From a bacterium (lineage in GTDB: Bacteria; Patescibacteriota; Saccharimonadia; Saccharimonadales; UBA4665): DNA of 64,000 nt. The translations under genes were made by a program, and so were the position numbers. The stretch is from positions 35,078 through 99,077 of the forward strand of contig JAJZCD010000001.1 in assembly GCA_021851735.1 (NCBI GenBank), read 5' to 3'. Shown here in pieces: positions 21,362 to 35,444 of the stretch. A model generated the notes under the pieces. The model was given only the letters and a program-made list of their open reading frames with translations. It was not told the origin of the DNA and made no database searches. The number at the start of each line of letters is the position of its first letter. Positions within the stretch are counted from its first letter, which is position 1.

Positions 21362-23164
21362 TTAGGAGTGTTGTAGTGAGGGAGATCCGGAAGTATTGAT
21401 GTAGCCTTCGCGCTCCAGGTGTAAGAGTAGTTGTTGTGATAGCTCGTCGGCTGAGTGCCTGACAGTATCGAGTACGATGTCAGCGTCATTCGGGGATTCA
21501 TATGGGTCGGATATGCCAGTGAACGCTTTAATCTTCCCTGCTCTGGCTTTTGCATATAGACCCTTGCGGTCACGCTGTTCGCATACTTCGAGTGGTGTGT
21601 TGACATGTGCCAGGATAAATCCCCCGCCTTCATTTTCAACGAGTTGGCGTACCGCTGTACGAGTTGCACTATACGGTGCAATCGGCGCACATATTGCAAC
21701 GCCGCCATGCTTAGCGATTTCGCTAGCAACAAAACCGATGCGCTGAATATTGATGTCACGATGTTCCTTGCTAAAACCGAGCTCGCTCGATAGATGTTTG
21801 CGTACAATATCTCCGTCGAGCAGTGTAACGCTGCGGCCACCCAGCTCAAGGAGCTTGATAATCAGTACATTTGCAATGGTTGACTTGCCCGAACCGCTCA
21901 GACCGGTAAAGAATACGACGAACCCCTGCTTAAAGCGTGGAGGCGTGGTACGGTATAATTCAGCGGCAACTTCTGGGTAAGTGAACCATTCGGGAAGCGG
22001 CTTGCCGGTGCGGAGTCGCTGTCGCTGCTCGGTGCCGGAGATATTGGCAATCTCCAGACCCTCGGGAACTTCGTCAATTGGCATGTAGCTATCTCTGGAT
22101 GGGACGTAAACCATCATTTTGAATGGTACAACGGTGACACCGATTTCGGCAGCGTGCTTTTCGACAAGTTTCTGTGCGTCGTAGGGTCCGTAGAAATCAT
22201 CACCGCTGCTGTTCTTCCCGGGACCAGCATGGTCACGACCAACTATAAAGTGACTAGCACCATAGTTTTTACGGATTATAGCGTGCCAGACAGCCTCACG
22301 CGGCCCGCCCATACGCATAGCCAGCGGTAGCAGTGAGATCATAGAAGTATTACTTGGAAATTTCCCCGCTAATGCTTTGTATACACGTACGCGGGTAAAG
22401 TGGTCAATGTCGCCTGGTTTAGTCATGCCGACAACGGGCTGAATGAGTAAGTTAGCTTCGTTGTCACGTGCAGCTCGTAGTGTCATTTCCACATGTGCTC
22501 GATGCATGGGATTACGTGTCTGAAAGGCCACTACCTTTTCCCAGCCGCGCTTGGCGAATATATCCCGGAGTTCTGAGGGTGTATGGCGCATTTCAGCAAA
22601 GTCGTAGTGTGTAGGTAGCTGTAAACCTTCGAGTTTACCGCTGATGTAGTATGGCTGGGTCTGGTTGAGCAGGTACTGCACGCCGGGGTGCAATTCATCG
22701 GTAGTACCGAACGCAGCTTGCGCTTCCTCCTTGAAGTCTGGCTGGTAGATCTCATCCACAGTAAGTGCAGCTAGCAGCACTCCCTCTCTGTCACGCAGGG
22801 CTATAGGTTGCCCTTTTTTGATGCTTTTGGCGAACGTTTCATTTACGTCGAGGTTTATTGGCATTGGCCATAATGTACCATTACTAAGTCGCATGTCTTT
22901 CAGCACACTCTTATAGTCTGTTTCGCCCAAGAAGGTTGTCAGAGGCGAAAAACCACCGTTCATGAGTAGCTCCACGTCGCATAGTTGGCGCTGCGTGAGA
23001 TCGAGGCTTGGCCAGTCGCTGGACTGCTTTTTGAGTGCAGCCTTTCGTTTTTCATCGACGATGAGATTGATAAGTTTCCCGCCGTGAGGCGGGTTGATGT
23101 TATCTATCACTGGTAACCTCCATTCAAAAACACAGTATACCCCGTGGTACGGCCAGTATGTCAA
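21362..23164 (-). CDS. sat: bifunctional sulfate adenylyltransferase / adenylylsulfate kinase (PAPS synthase-like)
   Basis: 600 aa. ATP-sulfurylase motifs QTRNPMHRAH and HFIVGRDHAG. C-terminal APS kinase P-loop GLSGSGKSTIA. The true start is possibly downstream of the first ATG. Confidence 0.9.
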   Translation of the reverse strand: MTYWPYHGVYCVFEWRLPVIDNINPPHGGKLINLIVDEKRKAALKKQSSDWPSLDLTQRQLCDVELLMNGGFSPLTTFLGETDYKSVLKDMRLSNGTLWPMPINLDVNETFAKSIKKGQPIALRDREGVLLAALTVDEIYQPDFKEEAQAAFGTTDELHPGVQYLLNQTQPYYISGKLEGLQLPTHYDFAEMRHTPSELRDIFAKRGWEKVVAFQTRNPMHRAHVEMTLRAARDNEANLLIQPVVGMTKPGDIDHFTRVRVYKALAGKFPSNTSMISLLPLAMRMGGPREAVWHAIIRKNYGASHFIVGRDHAGPGKNSSGDDFYGPYDAQKLVEKHAAEIGVTVVPFKMMVYVPSRDSYMPIDEVPEGLEIANISGTEQRQRLRTGKPLPEWFTYPEVAAELYRTTPPRFKQGFVVFFTGLSGSGKSTIANVLIIKLLELGGRSVTLLDGDIVRKHLSSELGFSKEHRDINIQRIGFVASEIAKHGGVAICAPIAPYSATRTAVRQLVENEGGGFILAHVNTPLEVCEQRDRKGLYAKARAGKIKAFTGISDPYESPNDADIVLDTVRHSADELSQQLLLHLEREGYINTSGSPSLQHS

Positions 23165-27902: not shown

Positions 27903-29771
27903 CTAGATGACTAGCTTTGGCGTGTCATGTTGTATAAGTAACTGCCGGGTCCGCTCAATATAGGCTTGTTCGTCAGTTACACCTTCATCACGGTACCAGT
28001 TATCTAGTGCACGCAGCACAGTGCCAATTACTGACCGGTTAGTAAGGTCGAACTCATGGGCAAACCTAGTTAGTAACCAGTTACCATCGATTCCTATGTC
28101 GCGTTTCAGCGACGGTTGCCGAATCTCTGGAGTGCTAGTCTGGTAATGATGCCATAGTCTTTCAATAGCACGAAATGCTGGCTTGCGGTGACGCGTTTCG
28201 CCAGATCGCCAGCTAGCAGCAGCATCGGCACGGTGTAGTTCTAGTAAATCTTGGAATGCTGGATGGCCAAGCATGTGCTGCTGGTGGCTGGGCCGCATGT
28301 TTGGTAGATCATCGATCGACAGATGATGGTATATCATCCAGACTATATTGCGCGTATCGCGCGTTGAAAAACGGAGACGTCGTAGTAGGGTCGTAGCAAG
28401 CTCGGCCCCAACGGCGTAATGACGATCAAATCGTATGCGATCGTGCTTTTGACGTGGTTCCCGTTTGGTGGGGGCTTTGCCAATATCGTGCAGTAGAGCT
28501 GCCCAAGCAAGCTGCGTACTGGGATGCGGGGGCAAATTATGTAGAGTAAGCAACTCATGCTGCCACACGTCCCCCTCGGCGTGGAGTTGTGGCGGTTGGC
28601 GTACGCCTTTACCTGCGGTCACTTCCGGTAGTACCCGCGCTAGTATGCCGTACGTGTCGAGCTCGCGAAAAGCCTTGTGGCGGCTTGGGTGTATGAGCAA
28701 TCTAGTTAGTTCATCACGGAGCCGATCAATAGCAATAGTCTCGATGACGCCGGTTGATACTGCGGTCTGTATAGCCTTTACGGTGTCGGGATGATAGTCA
28801 AAACCTAATTGATTTTTAAAGCGAACTGCACGCATCAGCCGCAAGGGGTCTTCATGAATCCTAATAATCGGGTTACCAATAAATCGTATAAGGCGATGCT
28901 CCAGGTCGTTTATCCCATTAACATAATCAATAACAAATCCTGTGGCTGGATCGTATGCGAGTGCGTTAATGGTAAAGTCACGCCGTAGTACGTCGTCTTC
29001 CAGCGACGCAAAGGTGATTTTTGTGGCTCGACGACCGTGATGAGCGTCAATATCTTTGCGGAATGTGGCAATTTCAAGCGTGCTGGGATTGCCCTTATGT
29101 ACAAATTGTACACGGGTGACGCCGTAAGCTTGCGAAGTATCATGATATTGGGCATGGGTAAACTCGCGAAGGCCCATGATGTGCTTTGGTGTGGCATCGG
29201 TGACAAGGTCGAAGTCTTTAGGTGGGGTGCCGAGCCATAGATCGCGTACCGCTCCGCCAATTATGTAAGCAGTAAACTTGTGACGGCGTAATATGGCAGC
29301 AGCGTGTATGGCGGATTCGTAGTCGTGAGGGGCTGTTTGTTCGAACCATAGCGGCCCGATACTCTGCATAAAAATTCGAGTCGTAGTCGGTCCGATACCG
29401 TTAAATGCTAGTAACTGTGCTTCGAGCTTATGCGTATTACAGGCGTATTGCAACAGTTGTGAGAGCGAACCGTATTTGGTTTTTAGCTGCGTAGCAATTT
29501 GTATCAACTTAGTAGCAGTTGAAAAATCGTAGCGCACGTAGTGAGCTTGATCGAGCAGGCGCACTAAGGTATCCCAGTCGATTTTGGCGAGTTTGTCGAT
29601 ACTGGTAATGTCAGCCGCAATGAGTGTATGGTATGCGCGGCGGGCGATCGTCTGTTGGATTGGCTTGCCAAATAATAGGCTTGCCAAAAACCACCGGAAT
29701 AGCTGTGCCTCAGTTTTGCTCCCGAGATCTATGGAAAGTGTTTGAGGGTCAATGATAGGGTTTGGTTTCAT
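27903..29771 (-). CDS. cca: CCA-adding tRNA nucleotidyltransferase with HD domain and extra N-terminal HhH-GPD-like domain
   Basis: 622 aa. Pol-beta head GGAVRDLWLG..PKDFDLVT, RRDFTINA, and HD motif LLHDIGK. The N-terminal ~150 aa contain a helix-hairpin-helix LLAFNGIGPTTTRIF. Confidence 0.8.
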   Translation of the reverse strand: MKPNPIIDPQTLSIDLGSKTEAQLFRWFLASLLFGKPIQQTIARRAYHTLIAADITSIDKLAKIDWDTLVRLLDQAHYVRYDFSTATKLIQIATQLKTKYGSLSQLLQYACNTHKLEAQLLAFNGIGPTTTRIFMQSIGPLWFEQTAPHDYESAIHAAAILRRHKFTAYIIGGAVRDLWLGTPPKDFDLVTDATPKHIMGLREFTHAQYHDTSQAYGVTRVQFVHKGNPSTLEIATFRKDIDAHHGRRATKITFASLEDDVLRRDFTINALAYDPATGFVIDYVNGINDLEHRLIRFIGNPIIRIHEDPLRLMRAVRFKNQLGFDYHPDTVKAIQTAVSTGVIETIAIDRLRDELTRLLIHPSRHKAFRELDTYGILARVLPEVTAGKGVRQPPQLHAEGDVWQHELLTLHNLPPHPSTQLAWAALLHDIGKAPTKREPRQKHDRIRFDRHYAVGAELATTLLRRLRFSTRDTRNIVWMIYHHLSIDDLPNMRPSHQQHMLGHPAFQDLLELHRADAAASWRSGETRHRKPAFRAIERLWHHYQTSTPEIRQPSLKRDIGIDGNWLLTRFAHEFDLTNRSVIGTVLRALDNWYRDEGVTDEQAYIERTRQLLIQHDTPKLVI

Positions 29772-30874: not shown

Positions 30875-31435
30875 TTAATCGTTCTTGCTGAAGGCTGACA
30901 CTGAGAATCCAGGGCACCAGGTAGCAGCTGTGATGGGGATAGTTATACTGCTCGTAGCATTGGGCGGCGTAACGAGGAGCGCGGACGCTCCTTGCTTACA
31001 TAGTATGCCCGGTTTACTCCCCACTGCCATAAAATGTACTGCGGCTTTGACAGTACCCGCTGCCGCGAGTGTTATGCGCGCTGCAGTCTTTGTGGTAGTT
31101 AGTTGCTTCGCTGGAGTGCCAACAGCATTGCCGTCGGCATCTACTAGTTGTAACTCTGGGGCTCCCTGTATAGTACATGCAGAATCTCCGGTGTTTTGAA
31201 GTATTAGGTTCATGTATGAGCTATTTATAGCTGTGGCACTTACAGTACCGGTCAGATTTGCAGGGGTACAAGCTGAAAATTCTGCTGCATGGTTATTATA
31301 GGCGTTACTCTTGTTGGAGATGGTTACTGTAGCTGGTTTACGCCAATAATGCCCGGCGAGTAGTGTGCTCATAGTCCCTACGACCAGAATAAGCATTGCC
31401 ACTCCTGCAATTACTGTGGCTCTCTCTTTCCACAT
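30875..31435 (-). CDS. secreted/anchored DUF4232-like protein
   Basis: 186 aa. N-terminal TM/signal, Cys-framed beta domain (FSACTPANLTG...NTGDSACTIQGAPELQLVDADGN). Confidence 0.45.
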   Translation of the reverse strand: MWKERATVIAGVAMLILVVGTMSTLLAGHYWRKPATVTISNKSNAYNNHAAEFSACTPANLTGTVSATAINSSYMNLILQNTGDSACTIQGAPELQLVDADGNAVGTPAKQLTTTKTAARITLAAAGTVKAAVHFMAVGSKPGILCKQGASALLVTPPNATSSITIPITAATWCPGFSVSAFSKND

Positions 31436-31472: not shown

Positions 31473-32036
31473 CTAGATAGGGCGCTCCTTCACACCCATC
31501 AAATAGCCAACAGCGCTCGCGATAAGGTGTATGATCAGCCATAGTATGATCAGCCAGACATATTGCAGCAGACTGAGTTGTACGAACGCCATTGTGGCAA
31601 GTGCGCCACCAATTATGTAATCTGTCTGGTCGAACGGGAACCAGCCTTGGCCGGGCGCTATGTTTCGTTGGCGTTTAAAAAAGCTTTCTATAGCGTCTCC
31701 GCCTAAGGCGCCAATTGCAAATAATGGCCCCACGATGAGAGTCGGTAGCTGTAGGTAATTGACTTGGCTGGTCCAAGTCTCCAATCCACTGGAGTGTGCT
31801 ATAGCTAGTTGCTGCAGGCCAAGCGCCAGCGTACCGCACACAATACCGGTGATCAGACCGCGCCAGGTTTTATGTGCCCCGAATATACGGTTACCATGGT
31901 ATGTCTTTCCCATATCTATCGGTGCATCAAGGTGCTTAAGTTGCGGAATTTGGGCGGCGAATATTGGAGTGACATTGGCAATTCCAGCTGGCAAAAAGAA
32001 CCACAAGGCAAAGAATATATCATGTAGTAAGTGCAT
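31473..32036 (-). CDS. carS: CarS-like (CDP-archaeol synthase / DUF46 family) membrane cytidylyltransferase
   Basis: 187 aa, ~5 TM. LPAGIANVTP, PIDMGKTYHGNRIFGAHKTWRG, GDAIESFFKRQ and FDQTDY match, from memory, the archaeal CarS pattern (PIDFGK...GDGKTWRG, GD...SFIKR, DQ). Its start directly abuts the stop of the PHP gene. Confidence 0.7.
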   Translation of the reverse strand: MHLLHDIFFALWFFLPAGIANVTPIFAAQIPQLKHLDAPIDMGKTYHGNRIFGAHKTWRGLITGIVCGTLALGLQQLAIAHSSGLETWTSQVNYLQLPTLIVGPLFAIGALGGDAIESFFKRQRNIAPGQGWFPFDQTDYIIGGALATMAFVQLSLLQYVWLIILWLIIHLIASAVGYLMGVKERPI

Positions 32037-32672
32037 CTAGCGGTGGCCTCGCAGGCGGTTGAACTTGGGGTATATTCGGCCACGTACGCCCGTAGATCGC
32101 TTACTGTGCTGGGCATCCTGTAATAGGCCGGTGAGTGTTTTATACGTGGGTTTGTGGGCAACCGTGCTATACGTACGCCCCCAACCATGCCAGCCGTGGC
32201 TGTCACTGCTACTGGCGCCTGGCAGGTGGTGCGTTTGCGCCCACTGCTCTGCCAGTTTGCCGCGATTTTGTAGGCTGCGTCCGTTATAGGTTTCTACTAT
32301 GTTTACAGCTGTAGCGATATTATTGAGCGACGCCAGCGATATACCTTTGCGCACGGTTTCAAATGGATGTGGTATGTATACGATACCCCGTTGTATTTGT
32401 ATTCGCCTGACAGTTTCGGCCGCTGATAAGCCAGGTGGTATAGGCGTTTTCAAATACAGCCCGATGATCTCACCCTCCTGGGTGGTAATTTCTTCGCCTA
32501 TGATAATCTGATTGCCAAGAGCCGCTTGCGCAGCAACGGCGAAATCTATCCGATCATGGTCAGTAATGGCAATGTAGTCAAGTGTGCCAGATTGTAGCAT
32601 ATGTCGGTAATCTTCTAGACGCAGCGATCCGTCTGGCGATGCTTGCGAGTGGGTATGCAAATCTATGTTCAT
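32037..32672 (-). CDS. PHP-domain metal-dependent phosphoesterase
   Basis: 211 aa. N-terminal IDLHTHSQASPDGS, later ITDHD, PHP and SSDSH metal-ligand motifs. Confidence 0.75.
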   Translation of the reverse strand: MNIDLHTHSQASPDGSLRLEDYRHMLQSGTLDYIAITDHDRIDFAVAAQAALGNQIIIGEEITTQEGEIIGLYLKTPIPPGLSAAETVRRIQIQRGIVYIPHPFETVRKGISLASLNNIATAVNIVETYNGRSLQNRGKLAEQWAQTHHLPGASSSDSHGWHGWGRTYSTVAHKPTYKTLTGLLQDAQHSKRSTGVRGRIYPKFNRLRGHR

Positions 32673-33292
32673 GCCCGTAAGGCTCGGCTAATGTCGATTA
32701 ATCGCTGTAGGGCTGCGAAGCTGGCCAGTACGGCGATAACGGCAGTTGCAAGGGCAACTTGGCTAAACAATAATCCAGCTGCCAGTACCGCCATGCGGAT
32801 TTCGAATGGTGCTAGACCGCCGCGGAAAAGCTTATTCAGATCGGTATATTTTTTACGCTTATCCTGCGTCGCAAATATAGTCTCACCTTTGGCACGGACG
32901 TAGCTAACGCAAATTGACGCTCCACAAGCTATGACTGCAATCGCGGCGTTACGAGGATGTGATCCGCTCGCTAGCAGCAGCCCGACGCCAGTGTATAGCA
33001 CTACCTCTTTGAATCGGTCGGTGGTCGCATCAAGAAATCCTCCCTGGTCGCTCACCCGGTTCTGTAAACGTGCCAGTTCCCCGTCCAGTGTGTCAAATAA
33101 CCCGAAAAATATGAGTAACATAGCAGCCCAAACTGTGTGGTTGGTGGCAATAAGCGCGGCAATTGGTATGTGCATACCCATGCCAAACCACGTTACCATG
33201 TTGGGCGTTAACTTGCCTCCTGTAAAACGATTGAGTGGTACGGCCAGGGCTCGTATGCCCTGTCGTAAGGTTTGTCTGATGCGATTCACCAT
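32669..33292 (-). CDS. CDP-alcohol phosphatidyltransferase (phosphatidylinositol-phosphate synthase-like)
   Basis: 207 aa. Perfect D-x2-DG-x2-AR-x8-G-x3-D-x3-D motif (DTLDGELARLQNRVSDQGGFLDATTD), polytopic. Confidence 0.85.
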   Translation of the reverse strand: MVNRIRQTLRQGIRALAVPLNRFTGGKLTPNMVTWFGMGMHIPIAALIATNHTVWAAMLLIFFGLFDTLDGELARLQNRVSDQGGFLDATTDRFKEVVLYTGVGLLLASGSHPRNAAIAVIACGASICVSYVRAKGETIFATQDKRKKYTDLNKLFRGGLAPFEIRMAVLAAGLLFSQVALATAVIAVLASFAALQRLIDISRALRA

Positions 33293-33304
33293 ATCTTGTT
33301 GTTA

Positions 33305-34438
33305 TTATTGTAGCACTTTACCACGCCTAGCTGCTCTCTTACTTTGACCGTATCTAGCTATGAATTGCTCTACGAGCGCTCTTGCTTCGTGGTCTTCAAC
33401 CTGTTTTGGTGGGTGCTTCTGGAAGTAGGCCGCAGGTTCTACGATAGGCCCGGCGAGCCTGTGATCGAGTGCGAGCTTGCAACAGCGTATTGAATCAATC
33501 GCAACACCAGCGCTATTGGGCGAGTCTTCTACGCTGAGACGTAGTTCAAGATGCATTGGTACGTCACCGAAGTGCTTACTCTCAATCCGTAGGAAGCAAA
33601 TTTTATTATCCTTTTGCCATGGTACGTAATCGCTTGGTCCAACATGAATATTCTCGGGAGCGATAGACTGACCATGAGCTTCTATCTGTGAGCTGACCGC
33701 TTCAGTCTTAGAGATTTTTTTGTATTGTAGGCGGTCACGTTCCAGCATATTTAAAAAGTCAGTATTGCCGCCTGTATTTAGCTGGTATGTACGCTCCACT
33801 TTCATACCCCGGTCAAGGAATAGATTGACGAGCGTACGGTGCGTAATGGTAGCACCTACTTGTGCTTTAATGTCGTCGCCGATTACCGGTAGACCGGCTT
33901 GTGTAAACCTACGTGCCCATGTGGGGTCGCTGGCTATAAAAACAGGTATGCAGTTGACGAATCCGCAGCCAGCCTCTAAGGCGGCCTGGGCGTAAAATTC
34001 GGTAGCTATCTGAGAACCGACTGGTAAGTAATTTACTACAATGTCAGCGTTGCTTGCCCGTAAGACATCTACAACGCTTGCTACCTCTTGCTTAGCATTG
34101 ACCGGTATAAGTGGTGCAGTGTACGTGTTGATGCCATCTAAAACTGGTCCGCGGGAAACTTGTACCCCTATGGTTGGTACGCTGGCGAAGGTAGTGGTGT
34201 TATTTGGCTTGGCAAAGATTGCCTCAGCTACGTCTTTACCTACTTTATTGTCATTAACATCAAAAGCTGCCACGATCTCAATGTCACGAATATGGTAACC
34301 GCCAAAATTTACGTGCATGACCCCTGGTACAAACGCATCGTCTTGTGCGTCTCGGTAGTAATATATTCCTTGTACGAGTGATGAGGCACAGTTGCCTACC
34401 CCGACAATTGCCAGTTTTATATTCCGTTTAGCAGGCAT
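33305..34438 (-). CDS. ino1: myo-inositol-1-phosphate (inositol-3-phosphate) synthase
   Basis: 377 aa. Rossmann start [21 protein letters not shown]. Length and motifs are typical of archaeal/actinobacterial MIPS. Confidence 0.85.
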
Positions 34439-34529
34439 AATGTGTTCTCCTTACGGTTGTCCCTTTATAGTAGGCGTTGTTGATTTATAACTCCAATATA
34501 TTTATTCCATATATGTATAATCTATAATT

Positions 34530-35444
34530 ATGGAAGATCGGCTCAAAAAGTTTGTGCAATTGGTTGACGCGGGCAGCTTTACCAGGGCGGCACATACGTT
34601 ACATATATCGCAACCCGCGTTGTCGGTGGCGGTTGGTAAATTAGAGCGTGAGCTGGGAGCTGCACTGCTAGTACATGGTGTGCGTCCGATGACACTGACT
34701 CCGGCTGGTAAATTGGCCTATGCTAGCGGCAGAGAATTGTCAGTTCATACTAGTAATCTGAGCCGGCAGTTGGCTGAGCTGGCGACGCGCGAGACAACTG
34801 TATCGGTAGGTATGATTGACAGCGTGGCTGGGACTTTTTTAGGATCCTCCAAAGGGATCACTGCATTAGAACGTAATGCAGCTGTGTCATTGGTGGTAGA
34901 CAATTCTCGGAATTTGGTTAACGCTATTGAAAGAGGCGACCTGGATATAGCGTTCGTGACTTCCCAGAGCCAATATGCCGATATAGTAGAGGTTATTGCT
35001 AGTGAGGCAGAGCCGCTAGTAACTGTCTGCCATAAGCGGCAGCAAGTGGCAGTGAACCGAGCAGTGCAAACCGGCTGCCTACCCTCATTTATCAGCTATG
35101 ATGAAGCTTCTACTAGTCACAAGCTCATTGTGAGCGCGCTGTGGCGACGCGGTGTGACTGCCAAAACGGCTTTTTATTCAACGAGTCCTGAGGTTATGCT
35201 ACGTTTAGTGCTTCTCAAAAAAGGTGTTTCCGTACTGCCTTATTCGCAGGTACGGGATCGATTAATGGCTGGTGATGTGGCGCTTGTCGGCAAGCCTCCA
35301 CTGCTGGTTAGCAGGCGCATAAATGTAATAAAACGTCGTGATATGTTGGTGCCTACATCACTTATGCGTACTGCTCACCATGTTACGCATGTGCTACGTG
35401 ATGTTCACACTCACGTCGATGCGTACGTTGCGGCGTCGCAGTAA
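34530..35444 (+). CDS. LysR-family transcriptional regulator
   Basis: 304 aa. N-terminal HTH FVQLVDAGSFTRAAHTLHISQPALSVAVGKLE. Divergent from the ino1 operon. Confidence 0.85.
   Translation: MEDRLKKFVQLVDAGSFTRAAHTLHISQPALSVAVGKLERELGAALLVHGVRPMTLTPAGKLAYASGRELSVHTSNLSRQLAELATRETTVSVGMIDSVAGTFLGSSKGITALERNAAVSLVVDNSRNLVNAIERGDLDIAFVTSQSQYADIVEVIASEAEPLVTVCHKRQQVAVNRAVQTGCLPSFISYDEASTSHKLIVSALWRRGVTAKTAFYSTSPEVMLRLVLLKKGVSVLPYSQVRDRLMAGDVALVGKPPLLVSRRINVIKRRDMLVPTSLMRTAHHVTHVLRDVHTHVDAYVAASQ

Follow-up and report, generated by a model that had tools for sequence, protein, structure and literature searches.

What lipid could be made by a set of four tightly packed genes that joins a myo-inositol-1-phosphate synthase and a CDP-alcohol phosphatidyltransferase to a PHP-family phosphoesterase and a membrane protein of the archaeal CarS family, when this set lies on a bacterial chromosome? 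The genes are found in a stretch of 64,000 nt from contig JAJZCD010000001.1 (called the window throughout), and for each of the four proteins the nearest relatives with a name belong to the Candidatus Saccharimonadia/Saccharimonadales (TM7, Saccharibacteria). Exactly matching proteins are encoded on contig DAHWCB010000001.1 of the metagenome-assembled genome GCA_027356525.1. The Saccharimonadia are a lineage of epibionts with small genomes. We think it reasonably probable that the four genes provide the head-group part of phosphatidylinositol (PI) synthesis in a bacterium that is probably unable to build phospholipids de novo. It would represent a variant of the prokaryotic PI pathway in which two steps appear to be filled non-canonically, by a CarS-family enzyme in place of CdsA and by a PHP-family enzyme in place of PgpA or another enzyme.

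All four genes are encoded on the minus strand. The first is ino1 (33305..34438), which encodes a myo-inositol-1-phosphate (inositol-3-phosphate) synthase of 377 aa, and it is followed by a gene for a 207-aa CDP-alcohol phosphatidyltransferase (32669..33292; PF01066) that resembles the synthases of phosphatidylinositol phosphate (PIP) and archaetidylinositol phosphate (AIP). The third gene encodes a compact PHP-family metal-dependent phosphoesterase of 211 aa, a candidate PIP 3-phosphatase (32037..32672; PF02811), and the fourth a 187-aa CarS-family membrane CTP:lipid-phosphate cytidylyltransferase that is proposed to be a CDP-diacylglycerol synthase (31473..32036; PF01864). Read from the DNA, ino1 and the transferase gene are separated by 12 nt (TAA, 12 nt, ATG), the transferase and PHP genes overlap by 4 nt (ATGA), and the PHP and CarS-like genes adjoin with 0 nt between them (TAGATG). 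The earlier note on this DNA had described the packing, the three junctions and the four gene identities, and all of these were recovered from the list of open reading frames, the DNA and the Pfam matches (Inos-1-P_synth, CDP-OH_P_transf, PHP and CarS-like). A scan of the four-gene block for promoter and terminator patterns found no internal site above the expectation from shuffled sequence.

The proposed reactions would begin with Ino1 converting glucose-6-phosphate to L-myo-inositol-1-phosphate. The CarS-family enzyme would use CTP to convert phosphatidic acid (PA), obtained from scavenged host lipid, to CDP-diacylglycerol (CDP-DAG), and in relatives a DAGK_cat lipid kinase encoded next to the cluster could form the PA from diacylglycerol. 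The PIP synthase (PIPS)-like or AIP synthase (AIPS)-like transferase would then combine CDP-DAG with inositol-1-phosphate to give PIP, from which the PHP phosphoesterase would remove the phosphate to leave PI. The CarS-family enzyme would also be the general CDP-lipid synthase of the lineage, and elsewhere in the class it would feed a CDP-alcohol transferase of another type as well. The Ino1 and transferase steps are indicated by strong homology and by conserved substrate-pocket residues, while for the CarS step the family membership predicts the chemistry and the context suggests the lipid, which would be diacyl rather than isoprenoid ether. All enzyme activities, together with the inositol-1-phosphate acceptor, the PHP substrate and the regulation by a LysR-type protein, are predictions from sequence.

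The 187-aa protein matches the CarS-like family PF01864 over residues 7–185 of 187 (E = 5.3e-26; 92.1 bits, cutoff 22), whereas the CdsA-family model PF01148 yields 24.4 bits over residues 55–126, equivalent to profile positions 169–230 of 264. A full-length match to the CdsA profile was not obtained; CdsA proteins have ∼260–290 aa and nine transmembrane helices, compared with the 187 aa of the CarS-like protein. The CarS structure from Aeropyrum pernix (ApCarS; 5GUF) is the sole significant sequence match among the structures in the PDB (E = 1e-12), and it was also the sole significant Foldseek match of an AlphaFold2 (AF2) model of the protein (pLDDT 89.7; E = 3e-5, TM-score 0.64/0.75, 31% identity), for which TmCdsA was not significant (E = 2.3). 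As in ApCarS, the predicted fold is small, with five membrane helices, and the dimerisation domain of CdsA is missing. Both the family scores (92 against 24 bits) and the match to 5GUF by sequence and predicted fold therefore bear out the earlier claim that the protein belongs to the CarS/DUF46 family and not to CdsA. The polar CarS motifs G-D-x3-S-F-x-K-R, D-Q-x-D and K-T-x-x-G are all present, and the motifs quoted earlier can be read in the translation. The conserved residues that ApCarS shares are P16, N21, D41, G53, K56, T57, G60, D114, S118, K121, R122, D136, Q137, and D139, and among 39 relatives D41, K56, T57, G60, D114, S118, K121, R122, D136, Q137, and D139 show little or no variation. 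The catalytic roles of these motif residues are presumably those of their ApCarS counterparts, as judged from conservation. A function as a CTP-dependent polyprenol kinase (dolichol-kinase-like) was considered for the protein and rejected, because the CarS motifs are intact and because the partners of the protein, in fusions or as neighbors, are CDP-alcohol transferases, enzymes that require a donor activated with CDP.

The genomic context of the family was analyzed by scanning GTDB species with one genome each, which identified at least 571 genomes with a relative. The best 80 of these were analyzed, almost all from the Saccharimonadia together with WS6/Dojkabacteria and Parcubacteria, and the neighbors were classified by tblastn and by hidden Markov models built from the loci (L001 and so on denote CarS-containing genome stretches compared with the window). 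The order PIPS-like, PHP, CarS was found in 38 of the 80 loci, including one (L080) with the PIPS-like gene on the opposite strand, and with such a recurrence among species-level genomes the gene arrangement is not due to chance. A further eight loci carry the PIPS-like gene followed by CarS without PHP, five carry PHP followed by CarS with no PIPS-like gene within 6 kb (one of these contigs ends early), and 22 carry CarS beside a CDP-alcohol transferase of a second type. The remaining seven loci, mostly on short contigs, have neither a transferase nor PHP beside CarS. Overall, a CDP-alcohol transferase is located at most two genes away from CarS in 68 of the 80 species. The two genes are also found as fusions in other Patescibacteria: among the CarS-family representatives (taken at 50% identity) two proteins begin with a CDP-OH_P_transf domain and end with a CarS-like one (P0180 from a Nomurabacteria metagenome-assembled genome (MAG), USN53187.1, and P0223). 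A Nanobdellota archaeon carries another type of fusion, in which DUF212, a divergent PAP2 phosphatase, is joined to CarS (P0264, MGM5482944.1). Adjacency and fusions argue strongly that the CarS-like protein makes a CDP-activated lipid that is consumed by the transferases.

The group with the second type of transferase usually has the order DAGK_cat< CarS> CDP-OH2<, and a lipid kinase of the DAGK_cat/YegS family flanks the cluster in 20 loci. This lipid-kinase neighbor is the reason for taking the activated lipid to be diacylglycerol-derived PA. The type-2 arrangement is found in more distant Saccharimonadia (among others L044, L050, L059–L061, L072, L076, L077, and L079), with the DAGK_cat gene on the minus strand, the CarS-like gene on the plus strand and the transferase gene on the minus strand, and in the type-2 transferase of ∼204 aa the QRL arginine found in the C-terminal part of PIPS is missing. 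In a tblastn search of the window neither a DAGK_cat gene nor a second CDP-OH transferase was found. The CarS-family protein would be a hub for CDP-lipids in general, with a second transferase among those it serves, and not an enzyme specific to inositol lipids. The earlier note had proposed a coupled route encoded by four genes, and of this proposal the coupling is favored by the adjacency, the fusions and the DAG-kinase neighbor, whereas the conserved unit comprises only the transferase, PHP and CarS genes and ino1 is rarely adjacent.

The best reading of these data is that the CarS-family enzyme would be the CDP-DAG synthase of the organism in place of CdsA, with a diacyl substrate suggested by the context. 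The following points weigh against it. The protein scores 126.9 bits with NF003114, the equivalog model for archaeal CarS, against a cutoff of 148, which makes it a member of the family that misses the equivalog cutoff. Characterised archaeal CarS strongly prefers digeranylgeranylglyceryl phosphate (DGGGP) over PA and cannot take the place of CdsA in E. coli (PMC9385802), so that a switch of the CarS-family enzyme to PA has to be assumed. Finally, the absence of a canonical CdsA from the host covers only the 64 kb of the window and the flanks.

The removal of the phosphate from PIP is the weakest step of the proposed pathway. The PHP protein matches PF02811 (E = 2.2e-8), and H6, H8, D14, H39, E61, H102, N130, D157, and H159 are invariant in its orthologs. 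The His/Asp/Glu set of metal ligands (H6, H8, D14, H39, E61, H102, D157, and H159) is intact, as expected of a trinuclear site, and the AF2 model (pLDDT 92.6) is a distorted (beta/alpha)7 barrel whose top fold matches are all PHP proteins. This homology would fix the chemistry, phosphoester hydrolysis, and not the substrate. The best 120 matches listed for the PHP protein are all from the Saccharimonadia (57–66% identity), the gene is located directly upstream of CarS in each of the 43 loci that contain it, and it is confined to the clade with the PIPS-like gene, being present in none of the 22 loci with a type-2 transferase. Furthermore, the four operon proteins and the flanking proteins that were scanned gave no PgpA match with Pfam or NCBIfam. 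Gene position and phyletic pattern suggest that the PHP protein is a candidate PIP phosphatase; if it has this role, it would be a non-homologous replacement for PgpA.

The explanation that survives best beside this one assigns a different role to the PHP protein, either as a hydrolase of the pyrophosphate (PPi) released by CarS or as a housekeeping phosphoesterase acting on 3′-phosphoadenosine 5′-phosphate (pAp) or nanoRNA (TrpH/RNase AM type) that happens to share the operon, with PIP being handled elsewhere or being the end product. The nearest structures, which count against a PIP phosphatase, belong to nucleases and nucleotide phosphatases (the PHP domain of RNase AM, TM0559, BVU_3505, and the pAp phosphatase Cv1693), but the similarity is remote (17–25% identity, TM-score 0.6–0.7). 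PHP enzymes of the TrpH/Cv1693 type can be pAp phosphatases, and the window encodes a fused ATP-sulfurylase/APS-kinase on the minus strand (21362–23164; PUA_2, ATP-sulfurylase, and APS_kinase domains), from which one would predict a metabolism of 3′-phosphoadenosine 5′-phosphosulfate (PAPS) and pAp; the gene matters here because it would generate the substrate of a pAp phosphatase. The constant position directly upstream of CarS is in line with a function tied to CarS, in particular in four loci (L026, L030, L040, and L051) where PHP adjoins CarS and no PIPS-like gene is found within 6–10 kb, and the link between PHP and the PIPS-like gene is not strict because eight species keep the PIPS-like gene and CarS without PHP. 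On the other hand, PHP is missing from all type-2 loci, where a pyrophosphatase coupled to CarS would be equally useful, it lies between the PIPS-like and CarS genes on the same strand in 37 of 38 loci (all except L080), and in the window it overlaps one neighbor by 4 nt and adjoins the other with 0 nt between them. A PPi or nucleotide-phosphatase role is therefore a serious rival, which we nevertheless consider unlikely. In one of the loci without a nearby PIPS-like gene, a wider look at L040 found no CDP-OH transferase within 10 kb; the same contig (L088, 2950–3999) carries a PF03706 LPG_synthase_TM gene 6 kb upstream of the PHP and CarS pair, and a gene of the same family was noted beside the inositol-lipid clusters of Bacteroides by Heaver et al. 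(PMC9246714). The L080 contig (CAZSWA010000011.1) is labelled as a MAG of the Gammaproteobacteria and carries a PHP and CarS cluster of the Saccharimonadia type (46–51% identity); it is probably mis-binned.

The transferase that would provide the PIP matches PF01066 (E = 1.5e-15). Its motif D67-x2-D70-G71-x2-A74-R75-x8-G84-x3-D88-x3-D92 is complete, as described earlier (DxxDGxxARx8Gx3Dx3D), and invariant in orthologs. The highest-scoring NCBIfam models are those for AIPS (NF040950, 99 bits, cutoff 180) and PIPS (NF045883, 82 bits, cutoff 170), followed by the BT1523-type PIPS (70 bits, cutoff 350) and the DIPP synthase (DIPPS; 52 bits). A profile of 33 orthologs identified PIPS structures as the best matches (6wm5, E = 5e-19; 6h53, E = 8e-18), and the mycobacterial and Renibacterium PIPS structures (E = 5e-19 to 7e-15) rank above AF2299 and DIPPS. 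In the PIPS of Mycobacterium tuberculosis (MtPIPS), S132, K135, R155, and R195 form the inositol-phosphate site (Clarke 2015, PMC4634129). The corresponding residues of the transferase are S130, R133, R166, and R197, that is, three of four are identical and one is a conservative replacement; R133 is a lysine in most orthologs, R197 is invariant and the other pocket residues are nearly invariant. The match of R166 to R155 was made by manual inspection and an alignment to AF2299, as the HMMER profile alignment to RsPIPS left that loop unaligned. The enzyme is therefore closest to the PIP and AIP synthases, with inositol-1-phosphate as its likely acceptor.

The supply of this acceptor is predicted to come from Ino1, which matches PF01658 (Inos-1-P_synth; E = 6e-35, 120 bits) and, over its full length, TIGR03450 with 479 bits, short of the equivalog cutoff of 638. 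The match to M. tuberculosis Ino1 (1GR0) covers residues 3–360 (E = 2e-130, 438 bits). The ino1 and PIPS-like genes form one operon in the window and are neighbors in L007, L009, L020, and L086.

It would be possible for the transferase to be something other than a PIP synthase: a PgsA-like enzyme with PHP as the phosphatidylglycerophosphate phosphatase, a eukaryote-style enzyme that uses free inositol with PHP as an inositol monophosphatase (IMPase), or an enzyme that uses CDP-inositol. The transferase falls below all NCBIfam equivalog cutoffs, which counts against a PIP synthase even though AIPS and PIPS are still the top-scoring families, and most relatives lack an adjacent ino1; moreover, in the examined part of the annotation table of the relative YM_S32, which is introduced below, no ino1 is found, two IMPase-family genes are, and the ortholog is annotated by Starr et al. 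as an inositol-using CDIPT (PMC6031116). The PgsA, PssA and cardiolipin synthase models, however, reach only 23–31 bits (PgsA 23) compared with 82–99 bits for PIPS and AIPS, which speaks against the possibility, raised in the earlier note, that the enzyme is a DIPPS or PgsA (52 and 23 bits). The pocket residues described above, including the invariant equivalent of MtPIPS R195, the lack of a cytosolic nucleotidyltransferase for CDP-inositol in the cluster, and the position of ino1 as the first gene of the operon likewise speak for a PIP synthase, and this group of alternatives is judged to be quite improbable.

An archaeal-type module, in which CarS would activate archaetidic acid or DGGGP and the AIPS-like transferase would make archaetidylinositol phosphate on the way to archaeal-style inositol lipids, is judged to be highly improbable: the best model scores are archaeal (NF003114 with 127 bits, and NF040950 with 99 bits above the 82 bits of bacterial PIPS), ApCarS is the sole structural relative of the CarS-like protein, and the CarS of a DPANN archaeon falls among the Patescibacteria sequences in a tree of distant representatives made by crude neighbor joining only, but both archaeal scores are below their equivalog cutoffs, the CarS-like protein and its Patescibacteria relatives are only ∼34% identical to ApCarS, the recurrent neighbor is the DAGK_cat lipid kinase, and no synthase of geranylgeranylglyceryl phosphate (GGGP) or DGGGP, glycerol-1-phosphate dehydrogenase or prenyltransferase was found in the annotated parts of the window or among the recurrent neighbors in the ∼80 loci. 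The label "archaeal-type" that had been given to the CarS-like gene therefore holds for family membership only, and no sign of an archaeal lipid substrate accompanies it. The distant representatives of the family include Nomurabacteria, Dojkabacteria, a MAG of the Acidobacteriota, and Nanobdellota.

Comparison with the other loci also indicates how the four genes of the proposed PI operon are organized. Among the matches listed, ino1 is abundant, widespread and highly conserved in the Saccharimonadales; the best 120 relatives listed show 77–85% identity, and those with names are Saccharimonadales. The gene is located within 6 kb of CarS in only three of the 80 loci: in L007 the ino1, transferase, PHP and CarS genes are co-directional and in the same order as in the window, whereas in L009 and L020 ino1 is convergent with the cluster. 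It is also adjacent in L086, and at least nine of the top ino1 matches appear to share contigs with CarS or PHP matches, one of which was confirmed directly. On one contig of 1.1 Mb all genes are found together in the order DAGK< PIPS> PHP> CarS> ino1< lysR> CDP-OH2<. In the window, a gene for a LysR-type regulator (34530..35444, plus strand; HTH_1 and LysR_substrate domains) is divergent from ino1 and a candidate for the control of ino1 or of the operon. A lysR gene adjoins ino1 in L007, L009, L020, and L086/L087, and adjoins the cluster in L031, L039, and L013; wherever ino1 adjoins the cluster it is divergently paired with lysR. This suggests that ino1 and lysR form a module whose position shifts with respect to the PIPS-PHP-CarS core. 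From the rare adjacency of ino1, its abundance and the constant company of lysR it follows that the four-gene operon is one way in which a conserved core of three genes and a mobile ino1-lysR module are combined.

The 91-bp AT-rich region between ino1 and lysR (34439..34529) is presumed to be the promoter and operator region. A GGAG ribosome-binding site precedes ino1 within this region, which is common to the divergent LysR gene, and the promoter pattern scan called no consensus sigma-70 site in it. The LysR protein probably regulates the operon, as judged from its position. As a separate observation, Ino1 shows a far greater similarity to its actinobacterial counterpart (1GR0, 438 bits) than the neighboring transferase does to PIPS of actinobacteria (∼40 bits), and an acquisition of ino1 from actinobacterial hosts is one possible explanation for this gap in similarity. 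PI is an essential anchor lipid of these hosts.

In the Pfam-annotated ∼60 kb of the window, which is a fraction of the genome, no CdsA, Pls, Fab or ether-lipid genes were found. A relative from soil with a complete genome, 'T. rhizospherense' YM_S32 (L018), has been predicted to scavenge lipids and to make PI and phosphatidylinositol mannosides with a 'putative phosphatidate cytidylyltransferase' (Starr 2018, PMC6031116). Three of its genes (_1165, _1166, and _1167) are orthologous to the CarS, PHP and transferase genes of the window, respectively, and the coordinates of _1165 are those of L018. In the examined part of its annotation table, _1165 (186 aa) is a generic phosphatidate cytidylyltransferase (K00981, 31.7 bits), _1166 is a PHP gene (K07053, COG0613), and _1167 was manually annotated as 'CDP-diacylglycerol-inositol 3-phosphatidyltransferase' (K17884; PMC6031116). 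The same part of the table contains the CarS-like gene as the sole K00981 or cytidylyltransferase entry and lists no acyltransferase, and on this partial evidence the CarS-like protein would be the sole CDP-lipid synthase of YM_S32 and de novo phospholipid assembly would be absent. The idea of the earlier note that a small genome re-uses scavenged lipid is in keeping with the Saccharimonadia lineage and with the lack of a listed acyltransferase. The lack of ino1 (K01858) from this part of the table counts against an inositol-1-phosphate supply as in the window, and because of it some relatives may obtain the inositol acceptor differently.

The idea of a PI pathway fed by scavenged lipid is not new, as it has been published for this orthologous locus (PMC6031116). 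The prediction for YM_S32 shares with the reading of the window the route from scavenged PA through CDP-DAG to PI, and it differs in assuming free inositol and in being made without the CarS identity, the PIP intermediate, the PHP phosphatase candidate, or the class-wide synteny. A literature search found no link between CDP-archaeol synthase and the candidate phyla radiation or Patescibacteria, and no recognition of the CarS family here, of the class-wide synteny and fusions, of a PIP intermediate fed by a co-operonic ino1, or of a PHP phosphatase candidate.

The best-known counterpart in chemistry is the PI pathway of mycobacteria and other actinobacteria (Ino1, CdsA, and PgsA1, the PIP synthase), in which inositol-1-phosphate and CDP-DAG give PIP and then PI. 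Ino1 is closely related in both (E = 2e-130) and the transferase keeps the D1–D4 motif and the MtPIPS pocket residues. The window differs in having CarS and not CdsA, a transferase that is distant from actinobacterial PIPS (∼40 bits), a phosphatase candidate of the PHP family in the operon, clustered genes, and a host that probably scavenges lipids. In B. thetaiotaomicron the cluster BT_1522-1526 encodes a myo-inositol-phosphate synthase (MIPS) together with a synthase and a phosphatase for PIP, and BT_1525, a PgpA-like protein, was the first bacterial PIP phosphatase to be identified (Heaver 2022, PMC9246714). This cluster resembles that of the window in combining MIPS, PIP synthase and PIP phosphatase functions, whereas its phosphatase is PgpA-like and the candidate in the window is a PHP protein, and the BT1523-type model reaches only 70 of 350 bits; it holds no CDP-lipid synthase, and the window cluster is without the sphingolipid branch. 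The archaeal pathway to archaetidylinositol (CarS and AIP synthase) uses the same two families of membrane enzymes, with the CarS fold and motifs in common with ApCarS. Here the window differs in its bacterial host, in having no ether-lipid genes in view and a recurrent neighbor of the DAG-kinase type in relatives, in scores under the cutoffs, and in the substrate of CarS, which is probably diacyl-PA and would be disfavored by characterised CarS.

Three further genes of the window were considered. An MMPL-family transporter of 706 aa (PF03176; 53522–55642, minus strand), which we take to be an actinobacterial-type lipid exporter, may have a bearing on the exchange of lipids with actinobacterial hosts. 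The gene 37 nt downstream of CarS (30875–31435, minus strand) encodes a DUF4232 protein whose N-terminus contains a hydrophobic segment; it was rejected as a member of the system, being present only in near-identical contigs (L001–L003). A 622-aa protein of the CCA-adding/poly(A) polymerase family (27903–29771, minus strand; PolyA_pol, RNA-binding, and HD domains) carries an N-terminal extension of ∼165 aa without a Pfam match.

In textbooks, CdsA marks the bacterial and CarS the archaeal side of the lipid divide. To our knowledge, Bacteroides is the sole group with an identified PIP or AIP phosphatase, a PgpA-like protein, and the step is unassigned in actinobacteria and archaea. A broader proposal is put forward tentatively, as possible and still somewhat doubtful: that the Saccharimonadia and other Patescibacteria may have no CdsA at all, that all of their CDP-DAG might be made from host diacyl-PA by a CarS-family enzyme whose substrate use would have crossed the lipid divide, away from archaeal ether lipid, and that the PHP protein might define an unrecognised class of PIP phosphatase. 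If true, a large bacterial radiation with a CarS-family CDP-DAG synthase would be a natural case of this family acting on bacterial lipids and would offer a direct handle on the determinants of lipid-tail specificity. The importance of the cluster would rise if the CarS-family enzyme acts on diacyl lipids or if the PHP protein is a PIP phosphatase, for which its gene is a concrete candidate, as it is for the AIP phosphatase. The assignment also corrects a systematic database label, 'CDP-archaeol synthase', in bacteria, and the cluster defines how the epibiotic Saccharibacteria could rebuild scavenged host lipid into PI.

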